Shown here piece after piece: positions 4,954 to 39,334 of a DNA stretch of 44,332 nucleotides. Below the pieces are notes generated by a model. The model did not search any database, was not told the origin of the DNA, and saw only the letters and a program-made list of their open reading frames with translations. This stretch comes from Escherichia phage EK99P-1. Numbering within the stretch: the stretch's first letter is position 1; each line of letters opens with the position of its first letter. The stretch lies in sequence record NC_024783.1. One strand, given 5' to 3'. Position numbers and translations under genes: made by a program.

Positions 4954-5065
4954 CCCGTCCGCGGACCCCGACGAAGATTTGATGATTGACGTGAAAAATA
5001 TGGAATGCGGGGCGAAGCTGAGGGCGCAGGTCCTGGAGTTGCAGCAGATAATTCGGGGGCCGTAA
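4835..5065 (+). CDS. Rz1-like outer-membrane lipoprotein spanin (o-spanin)
   Basis: Starts inside Rz in another frame and extends past the Rz stop. Signal peptide plus lipobox MLRVLTVLIAVLMLSAC, short Pro-containing mature part, RBS AGAGG. Confidence 0.7.
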   Translation: MLRVLTVLIAVLMLSACGSSSVPLMPLTESALRPPCKFDNPSADPDEDLMIDVKNMECGAKLRAQVLELQQIIRGP

Positions 5066-5080
5066 TGGCCCCCTTTTATT
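5055..5080 (+). terminator. rho-independent terminator after Rz1
   Basis: GGGGGCC-gtaat-GGCCCCC hairpin followed by TTTTATT, between convergent genes. Confidence 0.6.
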
Positions 5081-10924: not shown

Positions 10925-10948
10925 GGGGCCAGTACGGCCCCTTTTTTA
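10925..10948 (+). terminator. rho-independent terminator after major tail gene
   Basis: GGGGCC-agtac-GGCCCC followed by TTTTTTT. Confidence 0.7.
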
Positions 10949-11640: not shown

Positions 11641-11956
11641 CGAAGCGGGACAGGCGGGAAGTACCGTTTTGTCCCGCCTCTGTAAAACCGCATATCTAAT
11701 CACTTTCATTGCATAAACTCAAAGCGGGACAGGCGGGACGTCCCGTTTTGTCACGCCCTGTAAATGTGCATACCTATGCAGATTTCGTGCATAAACCAAA
11801 CGGGACAGAAAGCGGGACAAACAAGAGGCGGGACAAAGCGGGACAGCACCCCGTCCCAGCCAGTGCTGCCGCGGTTTTCAGCCGATCGGGACAGCGGGAC
11901 AGCACCCCAGTCTTTCAGACTAGACGGGGGTCAGTGGCCCCCCTCGTCTGAGACTG
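11641..11956 (+). repeat. GCGGGACA iteron region with terminal long hairpin (copy A, extended)
   Basis: About 10 GGGAC(A) units on one strand, several short GGGAC..GTCCC palindromes. The last 169 bp (11788-11956) are repeated at 39166-39334. Confidence 0.8.
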
Positions 11957-17439: not shown

Positions 17440-20400
17440 CGATTGTCTATGACGTCACAGGCCATAAAGGCGGCGGTGGCAAACAGCACACCCCACAGGA
17501 GACACCCGATAGCCTGCATTCGCTGGCTAAAATCCGCATCTTGCTTGCGCTGGGAGAAGGTGAGTTCGAAGGTATTCCAGACCCTAACGAATTACGGCGG
17601 CGCGTATATCTGGACGGAACACCGATCCAGAATGCAGACCTGTCTGAAAACTTCCCAGGCGCGCGTGTGGAGTTCCGCCCCGGAACACAGCACCAGGATG
17701 TGATCCACGGATTTTCAGCGGTGGAAAGTGAGCAATCTGTCGGCGTAAAACTGGAAAACGGCACGCCGTGGGTGCGCCAGATTAACGACACCAGTTTGGA
17801 CGCCGTGCGCATTCGCATCGGCATTCCGGCCCTGTACACAAACGAAGATAATGGCGACCTGGTGGGCGGGCGCATCGACTATAAGATCGTTGTGTATACG
17901 GATAACGCGGACCCGCGTGAGTTCAGATTCGCCGCCGTTGGTAAAACAATGTCGCTATATGAGCGTGACCACCGCATCGAGCTACCGTCGAACGTGAATA
18001 CCGGTTGGCGCGTGGAAGTTCACCGCACAACGGCAGATTCCACATCGGCGAAAGTGGTGAACGATATTCAGGTACAATCAATTACTGAGATTATCGACGC
18101 CCGCCTGCGTTACCCGCTAACCGCGCTGTTGTTTGTGGAGTTCGACGCCAAAGCGTTCCAGAACATCCCGCGCGTGTCCATCAAGTGCAAAGGCCGCAAA
18201 GTTCTAATACCGAACAACTACGATCCGATTAATCATACATATTCCGGGGACTGGGACGGCACGTTTAAACGCGCATGGACGGATAACCCTGCGTGGCACT
18301 GGTACGATATTTGTATTACTGAGCGCTTCGGCCTCGGTCGGCGTATCAAACCGCAAATGTTAAACCGGTACGCGCTCTACCAGATTGCGCAGCGCTGCGA
18401 TCAGTTGGTCAGCGACGGCAACGGCGGTCGAGAAATCCGCTTTAAGAACGATATGTACATCCAGTCGCAGACAGACGCCTGGACCGTGCTTAAGGATTTA
18501 GCAGCTATCTTTGCCGGTATGACTTGGTGGGGAAACCAGATGTTGAATATCGTAAGTGACCAGCCGGTCGCAGCGGTATCGCACACTATCACCAACGCCT
18601 CGGTTATTGATGGCAGATTCGACTACGCGTCAGGGAGCCAGAAAACTCGCTATTCCACTTTCGCGGTAGCATACGGCAACCCGAAAAACCACTACGACGA
18701 TGCCATCGCAACGGGACAACGTGTCGAACTGGTACGCCGCCATAAGATTAACCGTCTGGATATAACGGCGATCGGCTGTACGCGTGAATCAGAAGCGCAA
18801 CGCCGGGGGCACTGGGCGCTAATCTCCAACCAGCTTGACCAGCAAGTTAGCTTTAAGGTTGGCATGGAGGGACTATTCTTTATTCCGGGTAGCGTAGTCG
18901 CGATCGCCGATACAAACATTTCTGGTGGCTTCGAGACACGCGGCGGTCGCCTGTTGTCGGACCCTGGCACGCGTACCGTGCTTAACACGGACAGCGAAAT
19001 CACGTTCCGCCCAGGAGATAAATTCCTGGTACGCACCGATAGCGGTAATGTGGAGTCTCGCGAGATTGCCAGCGTCAACGGCAACAAGGTTACGCTAAAA
19101 ACCGCACTGGATGCCGACCCGATTCCAGATCAACCGTTTTGCGTGGATGGCAACGATATCCAGTTGCAGAAATTCCGCATCACCGACCTGGAATATGACG
19201 ACTCTACCAGCACTTTCTCGGTGCGCGGGATCGAGTACAACGATAGTAAATACGATGCCGTTGATAATGGCGCTCGCCTTGATCCGGGCATCTTCACGCA
19301 AGTTCCTGACGGAGTAATGAAGGGGCCGGAGTCCGTGACCATTACGCCGTCGCAGATTTCATCGCAAGGCCAGCTAATCACCAACGTGGATATTGTATTC
19401 CCGCCGGTGAAGGATGCCGTGGTGTATGAAATCCAGTGGCGACGTACCAGCTTGCAGAATATGGCGGTCCAGTGGGGGAATGACTGGGTAAACATCCCAC
19501 GTACGGCATCTAACGGCGCGCACATCCCGAACGTGTTTTCCGGTAACTACCAGGCACGCGTCCGCGCGATCGGTATGGGCGAGATTTCATCCCCGTGGGT
19601 GTCGTCTGCCATCACACCGATCGAAGGTCGTCTCGGCGGGCTTAACGCGCCTATCATCACCAACGCGATTTCGGGACTCCACCAAATTTTGTGGAAGTGG
19701 AACCACAACAACGCCGCGACGGATATTTCGTATACCGAGCTTGAAGTACGCAAGCTGGGCGAAACGGAATGGAAGTTCTTGACCAACGTCCCATATCCGG
19801 GGTCGGACTATGCGCAAACGTCGCTGGAGTTCGGCATCTACCAGCAGTTGCGCGCCCGCGTAGCGGATAAAATCGGCAACCTGTCGGACTGGTCCGCCCC
19901 GTTTGAAGGCCAGGTGAGTGACAAAGTTGACGAGTACATGAAGGGGCTTGATGACGCGTTCTTGACTTCCGAAGATGGTAAACACTTCCAGGAAGCAATA
20001 GACACCATTCCGCAGGGCATTTATGAATCAATGCTCACGGACGCCCAGCAGCTATTCAATGCCCGCGCCGAGTATCAAGGTATTTACGCAGAAATCAAGG
20101 TGGCGTATAACGTGGCAGCGGATGCCCACAAGGCGGTCGCACAACTTGAGACGCTGATCGGCACTCGCCTTGACGATGCGGAAGCGGCGATCCACACGTT
20201 GCAGACAGCGCAAAGCACGCATGAACAAGCGTTCGCCCAGTACCAGCAAACTGTTGCCGCTAAGTTCGGTGAACAGGAAGCCGCCATCGATCAGGTACAA
20301 ACGGCAACGGCAGACGTAGCGGGCGCACTGGCGGAGTATAAGACCCAGGTCGCGGCGCAGTTCGGTCAGCAGTCCGCAGCTATCGAGCAGAAGATGACGT

Positions 20401-20882
20401 CCTCGTTTAACCATGCTGGCGGTAGCGCCACATATAGCCTTAAAGCTGGCGTGACGTATAACGGAACTTATTATGATGCCGGTATGCAGCTTTCAGTTGT
20501 GGCGGAAGGCGGCGCGGTTAAATCCCGCATCGCGTTCAAGGCGGACCAGTTCTACATCATGCACCCGTCGAATGGGTCGCTTTCGTCCGCGTTTATCGTT
20601 GACGGCGGTCAGGTGTACATCGACACGGCGCGCATCAAGAACGCGTCCATCAACTTCGCACAGATCACGGACACGCTGCAATCGAATAACTGGAATCCGG
20701 GGAGCAGCGGCTGGCGTATCGCGAAGGATGGCGGGGCGGAGTTCAACAACGTCACGGTCCGCGGCAACTTGTACGCGACTACGGGTAATTTCGGATTCTC
20801 CGGCGGGTCCGTTACGATCGACTCAACGGGCGTTAACGTGCCATTACCTGGCGGTGGTAGGGTGAAAGTAGGGACGTGGTAA
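17436..20882 (+). CDS. central tail fibre / host specificity protein J-like
   Basis: 1148 aa, largest ORF, follows M-L-K-I in lambda order. Confidence 0.85.
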   Translation: MTIVYDVTGHKGGGGKQHTPQETPDSLHSLAKIRILLALGEGEFEGIPDPNELRRRVYLDGTPIQNADLSENFPGARVEFRPGTQHQDVIHGFSAVESEQSVGVKLENGTPWVRQINDTSLDAVRIRIGIPALYTNEDNGDLVGGRIDYKIVVYTDNADPREFRFAAVGKTMSLYERDHRIELPSNVNTGWRVEVHRTTADSTSAKVVNDIQVQSITEIIDARLRYPLTALLFVEFDAKAFQNIPRVSIKCKGRKVLIPNNYDPINHTYSGDWDGTFKRAWTDNPAWHWYDICITERFGLGRRIKPQMLNRYALYQIAQRCDQLVSDGNGGREIRFKNDMYIQSQTDAWTVLKDLAAIFAGMTWWGNQMLNIVSDQPVAAVSHTITNASVIDGRFDYASGSQKTRYSTFAVAYGNPKNHYDDAIATGQRVELVRRHKINRLDITAIGCTRESEAQRRGHWALISNQLDQQVSFKVGMEGLFFIPGSVVAIADTNISGGFETRGGRLLSDPGTRTVLNTDSEITFRPGDKFLVRTDSGNVESREIASVNGNKVTLKTALDADPIPDQPFCVDGNDIQLQKFRITDLEYDDSTSTFSVRGIEYNDSKYDAVDNGARLDPGIFTQVPDGVMKGPESVTITPSQISSQGQLITNVDIVFPPVKDAVVYEIQWRRTSLQNMAVQWGNDWVNIPRTASNGAHIPNVFSGNYQARVRAIGMGEISSPWVSSAITPIEGRLGGLNAPIITNAISGLHQILWKWNHNNAATDISYTELEVRKLGETEWKFLTNVPYPGSDYAQTSLEFGIYQQLRARVADKIGNLSDWSAPFEGQVSDKVDEYMKGLDDAFLTSEDGKHFQEAIDTIPQGIYESMLTDAQQLFNARAEYQGIYAEIKVAYNVAADAHKAVAQLETLIGTRLDDAEAAIHTLQTAQSTHEQAFAQYQQTVAAKFGEQEAAIDQVQTATADVAGALAEYKTQVAAQFGQQSAAIEQKMTSSFNHAGGSATYSLKAGVTYNGTYYDAGMQLSVVAEGGAVKSRIAFKADQFYIMHPSNGSLSSAFIVDGGQVYIDTARIKNASINFAQITDTLQSNNWNPGSSGWRIAKDGGAEFNNVTVRGNLYATTGNFGFSGGSVTIDSTGVNVPLPGGGRVKVGTW

Positions 20883-20888
20883 ATGCGA

Positions 20889-20910
20889 AGGGGCCATCTG
20901 GCCCCTTTCT
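20889..20910. terminator. hairpin terminator between convergent J and RBP genes
   Basis: AGGGGCC-atct-GGCCCCT followed by TTCT. Weak U tract on both strands. Confidence 0.45.
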
Positions 20911-21874
20911 AATACATGTTAGGGATGACTAGTAACGGTGTGGGTACGGTTACATTACGATTAGGCATCTGGAATTGCTGCCGTGAGTAGTTACCGATCA
21001 CGCGATTTCGTGCCGCGCTAACCACGTTGCCAGCCATGCGTATCCCGCTCATTCGCACGTGGTTATATCCGCTGTTGTTCTCAATGAGCGCGCCGGTATA
21101 TGAGAGCTGTACGAGGCTGTTGCCAATATTCTGACCACCAGTGCTGATATTAATTACGGAATTGAGGACAAACGGCTTATTCACAGTGGAGAACGTGACC
21201 TGGCCCTGGTTGTTAGTCATAGTAATGCCGGTCCCCGGTGATGGCGGCGTATTGTTGAATATCACCAGGTCCATATCCACCGAAGCCGCCACATCGTCAA
21301 TACCGCCATAGGACGCATTGCGGACAATAATACTGCCGCCGTCGAAGCCTACTGATACGTTGCCATCGTCCCATCGGGCGAACGGGACACCGCTAACGGG
21401 CAATGCCATACTACCGTTGACGCGCACGCGCTGTGCGTATCGGCAGGTCATTAGCTTAGACACGTTGGATATGGCGGTGAAGTCCGTCGAGTTCTCCACC
21501 AGTAAGCCCGCGTTGCGTGAACCAACCGGCAGCACTTCCATTATGACGCCAGCCCATTGTGGTAAGCCAGAGTACGCGCCATACGCATCCTCCCCGCGCA
21601 GGGTGATACCACTATTCCCGTTGCGGGTAACAGACGTAACGTAAAACGGGTCGGGAATTACCAGGGTCTGGTCGAATACCTCAATCACTTCTACCGGGCG
21701 AGTGAGCGCGACGACGACCTGCGACCCCTCCGTAAGCGGGGTGTTAATGGTTAGCGTCTTGTTGGACTGTGCCCGCTGGTTAAAGCTGGTGCAGTATGAC
21801 GGCGCGCGGAGTCCAGCGGTTATCTCCATTACAGGCCTGCCGTCGTTATAGTCGATAAGTATTCCAGCGCCCAT
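20909..21874 (-). CDS. putative receptor-binding protein, encoded antisense to tail genes
   Basis: 321 aa from the ATG at 21874 (RBS GGGAG). Gly/Asn/Ser/Thr-rich beta-type composition, immediately after J, coupled to an upstream lipoprotein gene. Confidence 0.5.
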   Translation of the reverse strand: MGAGILIDYNDGRPVMEITAGLRAPSYCTSFNQRAQSNKTLTINTPLTEGSQVVVALTRPVEVIEVFDQTLVIPDPFYVTSVTRNGNSGITLRGEDAYGAYSGLPQWAGVIMEVLPVGSRNAGLLVENSTDFTAISNVSKLMTCRYAQRVRVNGSMALPVSGVPFARWDDGNVSVGFDGGSIIVRNASYGGIDDVAASVDMDLVIFNNTPPSPGTGITMTNNQGQVTFSTVNKPFVLNSVINISTGGQNIGNSLVQLSYTGALIENNSGYNHVRMSGIRMAGNVVSAARNRVIGNYSRQQFQMPNRNVTVPTPLLVIPNMY

Positions 21875-21876
21875 TA

Positions 21877-22098
21877 TTACCACTCCCGTGATTTAACTGA
21901 TACTGTGCCTGAGAAGTTGCCGTCGCTATCGGATGACAGCCCGGTGAATCGCATGTCCACATCTCCTGCCGGGACTTTTTGCCCGTCAACGTAGCGCAAC
22001 ATGCAGCTACCGTAAGCAACCGTAACGCAATCGCCGTTGTTGCGTTCTACGGCGCAACCGGACAACAGAACCGCACAAATCATAATTAAAGTTTTCAT
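21877..22098 (-). CDS. small lipoprotein, putative superinfection exclusion protein (Cor/Llp-like)
   Basis: 73 aa. Signal peptide and lipobox MKTLIMICAVLLSGC, RBS GGAGATGA. Stop lies 3 nt before the RBP start. Confidence 0.55.
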   Translation of the reverse strand: MKTLIMICAVLLSGCAVERNNGDCVTVAYGSCMLRYVDGQKVPAGDVDMRFTGLSSDSDGNFSGTVSVKSREW

Positions 22099-22128
22099 GG
22101 TATCATCTCCTATATTTGGTTGAGTTTT

Positions 22129-22157
22129 AGTATTACACCGCTCAGCCAGGATTGCAA
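22129..22157 (-). promoter_or_regulatory. putative promoter for the lipoprotein-RBP operon
   Basis: Minus strand: ATTGGTTGCAA box with TTGCAA as -35, 17-nt spacer, weak -10 AATACT. Confidence 0.35.
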
Positions 22158-22178
22158 CCAATTTATGAGGATTCAGCT

Positions 22179-23840
22179 ATGGCAGCGGGTACACTATCCG
22201 TAACGAATAACAGCAAGGCGGTTGCCGGGGTAGGCACGACGTTCACCGCGTTTAAAGCTGGCGACTTCTTAACGCTGGTGGTGGGGCAAGTCCCTTACAC
22301 TGTCGCGATTGCATCCGTAGAAAGCGATACCGCGCTTACGCTGGTGCTTCCGTTCGACGGTCCCACGGCAACCGGCCTTGCCTGGGATGGCGTTGCGCGC
22401 GATACCATGTCACTGGCGACGATGGGCGTTACCGTACAGGCCCAGAAAGCGTTGCGATTGATGATCGCCGATGAAAACAACTGGCGTGCGATCTTCGGAG
22501 ACGAAGAAGAAGTTACGGTAACGCTGCCGAACGGGCAGGTTATGCAGGGTATGTCGTGGGGCTACCTGTCGCGATTACTGAAGGAAGTTGACCCCGTTGA
22601 AATGCGCGACCTGCAACAACAAGCCGCCGCATCGGAAGCCGCCGCACTAGCATCACGTAACGAGGCTGAAGGATTCAAGAACGAGACGGCAGGCATTCGC
22701 GACGCCACCGATCAGATTAAGACGGATACGCAGGCAATCCACGACGCCACCAACGCCATCAAGACGCAAACCAACCAGATTAAGACAGATACTGGCGCTA
22801 TTCGCGACGAGGCCAACCAGATTAAGACGGATACCGGGGTTATTCGCGACGAGGCCAATACCGCGAAGATTGACGCGCAAACCGCCAGCACTGCCGCGCA
22901 GGGATTTCGCGATCAGGCCGAAGAATGGGCGCGAAGCGTAAACGCCGATAATCTGCTAACTAAAACCGGCAACCTGGCAGGCATTGCAGACGCTGCGGCA
23001 GCGCGCACCAATTTAGGCTTAGGTACTGTCGCCACGTTAAACACTGTTCCTGTCGCTAATGGCGGTACAGGTGCGACCACGGCTGCAGCAGCGCGCACCA
23101 ATTTAGGCTTAGGTACGACTCAGGTTGTATCTTTCGGGTCAGTGGCGTTGACTAACGTTGTTACGGGCGCTTACGCTAGCGGTTTTGGGGCAACCGTAGC
23201 TGGCGGCAGTTTTGGGGAACAGTATACCAACCCCACAGCAATTGCTGTAGATAGCACCGCTGTCGAAGGTTACATTACGTTAATGAGGGTTACAATACCC
23301 GGTGTGGGTAACCCGGGTGGCATGGACTGCTTCATGTACGCTAATGGTACGTCGTTCTTCAGAATAAATACCGGTGTTGCAAATTACGTGTTTAACAGTA
23401 CTGGGGTAGCCACCGCTACACAGTGGTCGAGTACATCTGACGAGCGAATCGAAGAGGATATTGCACGGATTGATAACCCGCTCGAAAAAATGAAGCGTAT
23501 CAAAGGTGTGTCATGGCGACTGAAGACAAACGGTAGTATCGGTCACGGTTTCATCGCTCAGGATGTGGAGCAAGATTTCCCTAGCGCTGTCAATCCGTTA
23601 CAAGATATGCAATTGTCCGACGGTAGTGTCGTAAAAAACGTCAAGTCTGTTGACACGTACGGCGTGGCCGCAGCTTTGCATCATGAAGCTATTCTCGCAC
23701 TCATGGCTAAAATAGAAGCACTGGAGGCCACCATGCGAGCGTTGCCGGATACGATGAAACAGGTGGAGGAGTTGAAAGCCGCACAAGCGGGCTTTCGTAA
23801 TATTCCTTTCCGTCCACTTCCACTAAGGGCCAATCGTTAA
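22179..23840 (+). CDS. side tail fibre with C-terminal intramolecular chaperone (peptidase S74-like) domain
   Basis: 553 aa from the ATG at 22179 (RBS GAGGA). Repeated IKTDT and AARTNLGLGT motifs. C-terminal DERIEEDI...KRIKGV...HGFIAQDVEQ...AILALMAKIEALE resembles the endosialidase-type chaperone. Confidence 0.7.
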   Translation: MAAGTLSVTNNSKAVAGVGTTFTAFKAGDFLTLVVGQVPYTVAIASVESDTALTLVLPFDGPTATGLAWDGVARDTMSLATMGVTVQAQKALRLMIADENNWRAIFGDEEEVTVTLPNGQVMQGMSWGYLSRLLKEVDPVEMRDLQQQAAASEAAALASRNEAEGFKNETAGIRDATDQIKTDTQAIHDATNAIKTQTNQIKTDTGAIRDEANQIKTDTGVIRDEANTAKIDAQTASTAAQGFRDQAEEWARSVNADNLLTKTGNLAGIADAAAARTNLGLGTVATLNTVPVANGGTGATTAAAARTNLGLGTTQVVSFGSVALTNVVTGAYASGFGATVAGGSFGEQYTNPTAIAVDSTAVEGYITLMRVTIPGVGNPGGMDCFMYANGTSFFRINTGVANYVFNSTGVATATQWSSTSDERIEEDIARIDNPLEKMKRIKGVSWRLKTNGSIGHGFIAQDVEQDFPSAVNPLQDMQLSDGSVVKNVKSVDTYGVAAALHHEAILALMAKIEALEATMRALPDTMKQVEELKAAQAGFRNIPFRPLPLRANR

Positions 23841-24324
23841 CAATCACGTACGGCTCAGCAATATCCTCAATCACGCCGTGCGCGCTATGTTGTCCGAAAT
23901 CTACGCCCACCAGGATAACCCCGGCAACGCGACGAGTGAGATACTCGCGAGCGCAACGAGCCTCTACCAGTCCGCGACGGATGCCGCTGGTGGCCTTAAC
24001 CTCATAGGTCCAGACGGCATCAATCATGTGTTCCCGGAAGTCGGGGCCGGACTTAACCTTGCGCTTACCGACCATGATAATATCGCCGCGGTCGATAGTG
24101 TTAGCACTAAACAGGCCGGTACGCATTAGCAAACCTTGCGGTATGCAACTACGCCCGCCCGCCTGCCCCTCAAGGTACATGCCCGCAAACATCTCGCCCA
24201 GCACACCGACAAGACGGCTTTGCTTGCACGCGTCAGACTTTAGGCGCCACTGGTCAAACTCTATGCTTGCGATCATTGCCGCCAGGTGGAATTGTTTACC
24301 GGATATTTCATATTCGCCGTACAT
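23707..24324 (-). CDS. hypothetical protein
   Basis: 205 aa, RBS GAGGA. The 3' end overlaps the tail fibre 3' end by 134 bp (convergent). Confidence 0.5.
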   Translation of the reverse strand: MYGEYEISGKQFHLAAMIASIEFDQWRLKSDACKQSRLVGVLGEMFAGMYLEGQAGGRSCIPQGLLMRTGLFSANTIDRGDIIMVGKRKVKSGPDFREHMIDAVWTYEVKATSGIRRGLVEARCAREYLTRRVAGVILVGVDFGQHSAHGVIEDIAEPYVIVNDWPLVEVDGKEYYESPLVRLSTPPPVSSYPATLAWWPPVLLF

Positions 24325-24366
24325 CGTGTGGTCCTCATTGATGCGGGCCGAAGCCCGCGATTAGAA

Positions 24367-24888
24367 TTATTTCAGTGCGCTACGTACCAGTGTTTTTTCC
24401 ATGTTACGGAAATCTTCCGGCGTCATGAGGATTTTGGACCCATCTTCGCCGGTGAGCACGACCATAGGCTGGACTTCTTGGTCTGCAATGCCGAAATTGG
24501 CGGCTTTTACAGTCTTACCCACCGATGCAGAAGGATTCCACGTCCCCGCGGTGGCGATGGGCCAACCTTTAAGGCTGTCGTATTGCGCTGCCGTTGTATC
24601 GACCTGAATCTCATCATGTACGGTCATGTAAGACTCGCCCAGCAGGGCGGCATACGCCACCAGATCCACGATGTTATCTTCCTGGTGCTTACGGTGCTGG
24701 CGCACCAGCTTCAGGCAGATCAGGAAGGTCCAGGCTTCTTGCTCGGTAAGGTCGCGACCGGTAAGCGCGTTAAACACGGCAGCGATTTGTTTAGCGCTGC
24801 GTTCTTCTTTCGCGTTGTCATAGCCGTTTTCTTTCCCGCGCTGTTCCATAGTGGTGGCGGCGTTTTTGCAGTATTCGTATGCTTTCAC
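24367..24888 (-). CDS. hypothetical protein, possible MazG-like all-alpha nucleotide pyrophosphohydrolase domain
   Basis: 173 aa, GTG start with RBS AAGGG. The pattern EQRGKENGYD...AWTFLICLKLVRQHRK...DNIVDLVAYAALLGE is suggestive only. Confidence 0.4.
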   Translation of the reverse strand: MKAYEYCKNAATTMEQRGKENGYDNAKEERSAKQIAAVFNALTGRDLTEQEAWTFLICLKLVRQHRKHQEDNIVDLVAYAALLGESYMTVHDEIQVDTTAAQYDSLKGWPIATAGTWNPSASVGKTVKAANFGIADQEVQPMVVLTGEDGSKILMTPEDFRNMEKTLVRSALK

Positions 24889-24935
24889 AGTATTGCCCTT
24901 TTTAGCGAGGGGGCGGTAATGCCCCCGACACGTTT

Positions 24936-39165: not shown

Positions 39166-39334
39166 TGCATAAACCAAACGGGACAGAAAGCGGGACAAAC
39201 AAGGGGCGGGACAAAGCGGGACAGCACCCCCGTCCCGCCCCGGATGGCGCGGCCTGGAGAGGAGCGGGACAGCGGGACAGCACCCCAGTCTTTCAGACTA
39301 GACGGGGGTCAGCGGCCCCCCTCGTCTGAGACTG
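39166..39334 (+). repeat. GCGGGACA iteron plus long hairpin element (copy B)
   Basis: 169 bp directly after the primase gene. Both flanks near-identical to 11788-11956, 34-bp central core divergent, one loop substitution in the hairpin. Confidence 0.8.

Follow-up and report, generated by a model that had tools for sequence, protein, structure and literature searches.

The 134-bp convergent overlap at the tail fibre locus of Escherichia phage EK99P-1 is probably the scar of a 79-bp deletion

Introduction

Microhomology-flanked slipped-strand deletions at palindromes are reportedly known from E. coli lacI and from phage genomes. In Dhillonviruses, the locus at which the lateral tail fibre gene meets a convergent gene on the other strand has a regular layout, which we compared in six annotated phages (SP1, McMelon, WFI, BMA1, Bas84 and Gluttony). 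In these genomes the usual length of the antisense gene is 576 nt (191 aa), with 552 nt in Bas84 and a 327-nt CDS annotated in Gluttony. The gap between the fibre stop and this gene was 22–39 nt in every relative examined and held a terminator hairpin. In the six Dhillonviruses it carries a GGGGCC-N4-GGCCCC hairpin with a T-run behind it, which the WFI annotation lists as a terminator; the predicted fold of the relatives' gap hairpin has an energy of −19.2 kcal/mol (z −4.0). BMA1 is a natural length variant (L004 1255–1282), in which the fibre TAA lies inside the second KQ[AV]EELK repeat (...EIAALKQA, then stop), giving a gap of 39 nt.

Escherichia phage EK99P-1 is a Dhillonvirus, ~92% identical to SSL-2009a and relatives. 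Its plaques appear on ETEC K99 and on two NCCP strains, but not on DH5α or TOP10 (PMC8766502). Lateral fibres of related siphoviruses are proposed O-antigen binders, dispensable on rough strains (PMC8594841). In Peptidase_S74 chaperone domains, a Ser-Lys dyad is described as indispensable for the cleavage that releases the domain (PMC8326128). Here, we compare the fibre locus of EK99P-1 with those of its relatives; the whole sequence analysed (NC_024783.1, 44,332 nt) is referred to as the window.

Results

The fibre ORF (22152..23840, plus strand, 562 aa) and the antisense ORF (23707..24324, minus strand, 205 aa) both close at real stops, as seen in the ORF listing and in the sequence, and have the interval 23707–23840 in common. 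A sequence-only reading of this DNA had described the 134-bp overlap and the real stops exactly. Its statement that both genes have good starts and ribosome binding sites also agreed with our analysis, with GAGGA preceding the ATG of the 205-aa gene at 24324 and lying 7 nt upstream of the fibre ATG at 22179. The longest fibre ORF opens at TTG 22152, which lacks a good ribosome binding site, and translation likely starts at ATG 22179 (553 aa) rather than at this TTG (562 aa); the ATG is also the fibre start in the public record, McMelon and WFI. The 553-aa product is identical to AIK68739.1 / YP_009055305.1 of EK99P-1. Fibre residues are numbered in the 562-aa frame throughout, and feature coordinates are collected in Table 1.

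Table 1 Features of the EK99P-1 fibre locus and hairpins of the terminator type in the window
Feature	Position	Strand	Basis
Lateral tail fibre gene	22179..23840	+	Peptidase_S74, phrog_1980, GAGGA RBS, match to AIK68739.1
Peptidase_S74 intramolecular-chaperone core	23436..23591	+	Pfam match, homologue alignment
Deletion junction (putative), single kept GCCG copy	23778..23781	no strand	L010/L011 alignment, BLAST segments
Fibre read-through tail, codons 544–562 (AQAGFRNIPFRPLPLRANR) + TAA	23781..23840	+	relatives end ...KQVEELKAEIAALKK, then stop
Antisense-gene read-through tail, codons 183–205 (LSTPPPVSSYPATLAWWPPVLLF) + TAG	23707..23778	-	relatives end ...PLVRRKMDWENSN, then stop
Native part of antisense gene, codons 1–182, phrog_10558, normally 191 aa	23779..24324	-	
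New imperfect 9-bp hairpin GAAAGCCGC-ACAA-GCGGGCTTTC	23774..23796	no strand	DNA fold
GGGGCC-N4-GGCCCC-type hairpins	5056-5072, 10925-10941, 11926-11942, 20890-20905, 24910-24925, 39304-39320		

The two halves of the overlap have separate affinities. Positions 23707–23777 are homologous to relatives only in the fibre frame and positions 23782–23840 only in the frame of the antisense gene, and no homologues were found for the second frame in either half, so that the overlap shows no dual constraint at the protein level. The fibre tail lies antisense to conserved codons ~163–182 of the 205-aa gene, and the tail of the antisense gene lies antisense to native fibre codons ~519–543. The profile matches of the two proteins, phrog_1980 in the fibre and phrog_10558 in the antisense product, end at residues 542 and 182, which are the same spot on the DNA (23778–23781).

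We then compared the junction with those of the nearest relatives. The 90%-identity cluster of the window's fibre also includes metagenome-derived fibres of 526–541 aa, the closest of which (P0075) ends ...ATMRALPDTMKQVEELKAEIAALKK, followed by a stop. Its contig, the metagenome-derived L010 (ENA ERZ22234763, 43,781 bp), is 98.5% identical to window positions 19179–23781 and 99.1% identical to 23778–24887, without any other gap (BLAST). The two segments overlap by exactly GCCG (23778–23781), and 79 bp of L010 between them are unmatched. A second contig, L011 (ERZ27280927), independently assembled from another sample, has flanks 89–95% identical to the window and the same intact junction as L010. 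L010 and L011 carry the 4-nt direct repeat GCCG at either end of the segment absent from the window, where a single copy remains. A short repeat at both ends, retention of one copy and collinear flanks together make up the pattern of a microhomology deletion.

In L010 the missing 79 bp read AGATCGCGGCGCTGAAGAAATAA GAGAAGGGCCATACGGCCCTTTT TCAGTTTGAATTCTCCCAGTCCATCTTGC GCCG. Their fibre part comprises the codons for E-I-A-A-L-K-K and the TAA stop, and their middle is a 23-nt intergenic stretch with a GGGCC-ATAC-GGCCC hairpin (arms AAGGGCC/GGCCCTT) and a T-run. The remainder holds the last nine codons and the TGA stop of the antisense gene (RKMDWENSN, or N-S-N-E-W-D-M-K-R read backwards) and the second GCCG. 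Three further relatives of the same type (L012–L014) have smaller length variants at the fibre 3' end, with products closing at ...DTMK (527 aa) or ...KQVEEMKK (534 aa). In all of them a fibre stop and the hairpin are kept and the 191-aa gene has its native end. Alignments to more distant Dhillonviruses had given a deletion size of 96–99 bp, which is superseded by the 79 bp obtained from L010 and L011. An origin in two events, with the KQVEELK repeat collapsing and a shorter stretch being deleted as well, was rejected in view of the single 79-bp gap relative to these contigs.

The window's junction was then sought in larger collections. When window positions 23400–24100 were compared with phage records, similarity began exactly at 23778 in the best 15 of 127, none of which spanned the junction. 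The intact SP1 junction used as a query matched 153 phage records, and each of the 40 matches sampled across the ranking shows at least one of two features, the hairpin and the antisense gene's native 3' end. A degenerate 25-nt pattern of the window's junction had no matches in IMG/VR, JGI metagenomes or GTDB genomes, and the exact 205-aa sequence was absent among ~15 billion proteins, although the fibre product was present. The overlap was found in none of the five metagenomic relatives with the same fibre type. Separately, two records, MG065648.1 (Campylobacter phage A144) and OQ221563.1 (Acinetobacter phage NJ01), are ~92% identical to E. coli Dhillonviruses at this locus, and on this similarity they may be mislabelled as to host, or contaminated.

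To set a baseline for read-through, all long ORFs of the EK99P-1 genome were read on the opposite strand. With both stops deleted, each ORF reads into the antisense strand of the other gene until a chance stop, and past the junction the fibre is open for 20 codons and the antisense gene for 23. In EK99P-1, the median length of stop-free runs read opposite to coding sequence is 24 codons, and 52–56% of the runs equal or exceed the observed tails. The length of the overlap needs no special explanation, because both stops are lost and the tail lengths are typical for the genome; the 134 bp is the sum of two ordinary read-throughs. Translation of both tails would be expected from the absence of earlier stops.

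The fibre contains a Peptidase_S74 domain (PF13884) at aa 429–480 (E = 1.6e-12, 48 bits against a cut-off of 22), and the match to the phrog_1980 'tail fiber protein' profile begins at aa 10. Native sequence is kept through ...KQVEELKA (residue 543), after which seven residues (EIAALKK) are lost and 19 are gained. A phmmer search of the fibre C-terminus against the PDB gave no match. A homologue profile aligned the domain to the solved structures 8jov, 6f45 and 7dc3, and in the solved relatives the C-terminal helix of the Peptidase_S74 domain is a trimerising coiled coil. In homologues of this chaperone subtype typically 10–25 residues run from the HHEAILALM motif to the end, and the native part of the window's fibre has 24–25. 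The earliest-ending fibres of the same type, which close at ...RALQDTMK (527 aa, 4 contigs), are shorter than this native part. Loss of the last seven residues is probably harmless, since natural fibres end even earlier and the window's native part already extends 24–25 residues past the motif. The extreme 3' end of the fibre gene is an indel hot spot among same-type relatives (products of 526, 527, 534 and 541 aa).

At the predicted cleavage site, Ser429 (23436–23438) is present, and the Ser-Lys catalytic dyad known from endoNF (S911/K916) and MyRF (S587/K592) is incomplete, with Glu434 at position +5. Lysine occupies +5 in 49 of 51 aligned homologues and in 6/6 same-type fibres, with the codon AAA in the nearest relative. 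Residue 434 (23451–23453, GAA), a Glu within S429-D-E-R-I-E434, is residue 425 of the deposited 553-aa protein. Because the dyad Lys is replaced by Glu434, the chaperone domain may not be released from the mature fibre. The fibre is also a mosaic, with ~290 N-terminal aa of Dhillonvirus type and a Wifcevirus-like chaperone region (F13, FEC19 and ECML-117; 66–80% nucleotide identity). The mosaic part covers window positions ~23100–23777, and the final 52 nt before the junction are again of Dhillonvirus type.

The sole profile match of the 205-aa protein is phrog_10558 ('unknown function'), and Pfam gave no match at E ≤ 0.01, with no profile match to a curated nuclease family. The product is 91–93% identical over its full length to proteins of the six Dhillonviruses and aligns through residue 182 (...ESPLVR). 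Beyond that residue relatives end RKMDWENSN and the window protein continues LSTPPPVSSYPATLAWWPPVLLF, with complete divergence. Homologues form seven clusters with >500 member sequences, the full-length ones being 191–194 aa long, down to 54% identity, and share a conserved C-terminal tail, R-[KR]-x-D-[WF]-E. The deletion removes nine native residues from this protein and adds 23 unrelated ones. In structural predictions, residues 179–190 of the native protein form a helix (pLDDT ~87). Only residues 179–183 of the window protein are helical, and residues 185–205 have pLDDT <50, with block means of 33–37 (AlphaFold). The family-invariant Arg183 is replaced by Leu, and with the C-terminal helix mostly lost as well, the protein may be impaired. 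D81, E108 and K110, which do not vary among seven sequences down to 54% identity, match a D...(D/E)-x-K motif, and the predicted fold may be PD-(D/E)XK nuclease-like.

No terminator-like site was found in a scan of window positions 23500–24300, and the overlap region holds no GGGGCC-N4-GGCCCC hairpin and thus no intrinsic terminator of this type. The arms of a new hairpin at 23774–23796 (DNA fold −8.7 kcal/mol, z −3.9) come from a 7-nt inverted repeat, which in relatives lies on either side of the deleted segment. This hairpin was considered as a replacement intrinsic terminator and rejected, as it has no U-tract on either strand and was not called by the scan. The other convergent junction of the locus, at 20890–20905, retains a perfect GGGGCC-N4-GGCCCC hairpin, which separates the tail-tip gene from the DUF6453 gene. 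Genome-wide, hairpins of this type have 10 matches (≤2 mismatches) against 2.9 expected, and 0/100 shuffles reached 10; judged by sequence, they are probably a terminator family. With the terminator gone, transcriptional interference between the fibre and the antisense gene is now physically possible, as an accident of the deletion. Plus-strand fibre transcripts could run antisense into early-region genes, and minus-strand transcripts could traverse, in antisense, the fibre gene and then the lipoprotein and DUF6453 genes, up to the terminator at 20890–20905.

Discussion

Comparison with the nearest relatives makes it quite likely that the 134-bp overlap is a by-product of a 79-bp deletion, an ordinary mutation scar and not an evolved feature. 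Judged by flanks that differ by only ~1% from the undeleted relative, the deletion is very recent. The converse, in which the 79 bp would be an insertion in the relatives and the undeleted form derived, appears implausible given the intact form in relatives. In the proposed ancestral order, the fibre would have ended ...KQVEELKAEIAALKK-TAA, followed by 23 nt with the AAGGGCC-ATAC-GGCCCTT hairpin and a T-run. Next would have come, from the 191-aa gene on the opposite strand, TCA (stop) and ...NSNEWDMKRR. A single 79-bp deletion between the two GCCG copies, in the EK99P-1 lineage or, less likely, in its assembly, would have taken the 3' end of each convergent gene and the intervening terminator.

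We infer slipped-strand mispairing as the origin of the deletion, helped by nested hairpins that would draw the two GCCG copies near each other. In the in silico single-stranded DNA fold of L010:4591–4700, an outer 7-bp stem (GAAAGCC/GGCTTTC) encloses the deleted segment. This region folds with z −3.6 on both strands, and 0/200 shuffles fold as well. The nested structure of the intact relative, comprising the outer stem, a GC-rich stem inside it and the terminator hairpin, brings the GCCG copies close together in the predicted fold. The 4-nt repeat and the predicted fold are suggestive of slippage, not proof of it. Tolerance of the deletion would fit a fibre whose extreme C-terminus is naturally variable and whose chaperone domain is accessory to the mature fibre. 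The deletion would indeed have been tolerated if it is real and if the plaquing EK99P-1 stock matches the deposited sequence. Convergent transcription would now run unterminated through both genes.

If the 79-bp gap were an artefact of assembly or sequencing, the real phage would have both stops and the terminator, and no overlap. Such an error is unlikely in view of the clean 4-nt microhomology junction with flanks collinear at 98.5–99%, which is the signature of a slippage deletion. It would nevertheless account for a junction that is unique among the collections searched and carried by only one deposited sequence, and for the absence of the exact 205-aa product from a protein collection that contains the fibre product. 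The strong GC-rich hairpin and nested inverted repeats of the missing segment could also have caused a drop in coverage or polymerase skipping when the library was prepared or in PCR. Collapse of repeats by an assembler normally needs repeats much longer than 4 nt, and the GCCG repeat is too short for a typical collapse. A second unique change in the same gene (K434E) also fits a lineage with its own mutations.

The sequence-only reading had proposed that so long an overlap could couple late and early expression through transcriptional interference. An evolved and functional overlap, whether by useful C-terminal extensions or by antisense coupling of late (fibre) and early (minus-strand) expression, is very improbable. 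Both ORFs are open through the overlap and loss of the terminator permits convergent read-through transcription. However, relatives of each ORF stop before the overlap (antisense homologues at 191–194 aa, same-type fibres at 526–541 aa) and the 79-bp deletion was seen only in this genome. There is no conservation in the Dhillonvirus records sampled (best 15 of 127; 40 of 153) or among the five same-fibre-type metagenomic relatives, the ~1% divergence of the flanks marks a very recent event, and chance read-through would be expected to give tails of this length. Neither tail has homologues, the modelled one (205-aa protein) is predicted to be disordered, and a conserved helix, predicted with confidence, is lost through the deletion along with an invariant Arg. 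The related suggestion that the two tails are non-essential extensions, including a low-complexity Pro-rich tail of the 205-aa protein that is present as described, holds in so far as both are non-native, match no homologue and lie beyond profiles ending at residues 182 and 542, with pLDDT 33–37 for the tail of the 205-aa protein; each also takes the place of native residues. The mosaic fibre, with its Dhillonvirus N-terminus, Wifcevirus-like chaperone, Dhillonvirus-type last 52 nt and a 3' end prone to indels, could alternatively suggest that the junction is the scar of illegitimate recombination that imported a receptor-binding module, and not of a later internal deletion. This is hardly credible, as the very mosaic fibre of the window is shared by L010 and L011, in which its 3' end, the terminator and the gene next to it are all intact, so the module exchange would be earlier than, and separable from, the 79-bp loss.

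Under the 79-bp deletion, the locus reveals no new mechanism and is an instance of a well-known kind of event. Its practical meaning is chiefly a caution for annotation, where an unusually long convergent overlap in a single genome became a 79-bp deletion scar once near-identical relatives were compared. For EK99P-1, studied as an anti-ETEC agent, three possible defects are flagged at one locus. These are an altered C-terminus of the fibre chaperone, loss of the catalytic Lys for chaperone release, and truncation of a conserved, putatively nuclease-like protein; loss of the terminator between late and early genes is flagged as well. If the deletion is real, EK99P-1 would be a natural test of whether these elements are dispensable. 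A further reading, a long shot as a whole, takes the deletion as real and consequential. Without the shared terminator, fibre and early transcription would collide and yield long antisense RNAs, and the Glu434 fibre would keep its chaperone and Pro-rich tail on the virion, as a naturally 'capped' lateral fibre whose adsorption or host range is changed. ETEC K99 supports plating of EK99P-1, and K-12 strains do not.

One closely similar known system is the fibre/terminator/phrog_10558 junction of WFI, SP1, HK578, L010 and L011, which has the same genes, order and orientation as the window, with flanks up to 99% identical. These junctions have a 22–39 nt gap with a hairpin terminator and no overlap, whereas gap, stops and terminator are all missing from the window. 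The fibre aligns with endoNF, the T5 L-shaped fibre and the MyRF intramolecular chaperone (ICA) in its Pfam domain, cleavage-site Ser and C-terminal coiled-coil helix. It differs in the dyad, where Lys is replaced by Glu, and in the end of its helix, which gives way to a Pro-containing read-through tail. As in stop-loss extensions, in which a native stop is lost and the frame runs to the next chance stop with an unrelated tail predicted to be disordered, both EK99P-1 genes run on past lost stops. Unlike the usual case, one deletion hits two convergent genes and the tails are encoded on opposite strands of the same DNA. The junction resembles slipped-strand deletions of E. coli lacI and phages in its short end repeats with one copy kept, a hairpin inside, inverted repeats bracketing the segment and collinear flanks. 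It differs from them in that the EK99P-1 event is deduced from relatives rather than experimentally observed, and in a repeat of only 4 nt.
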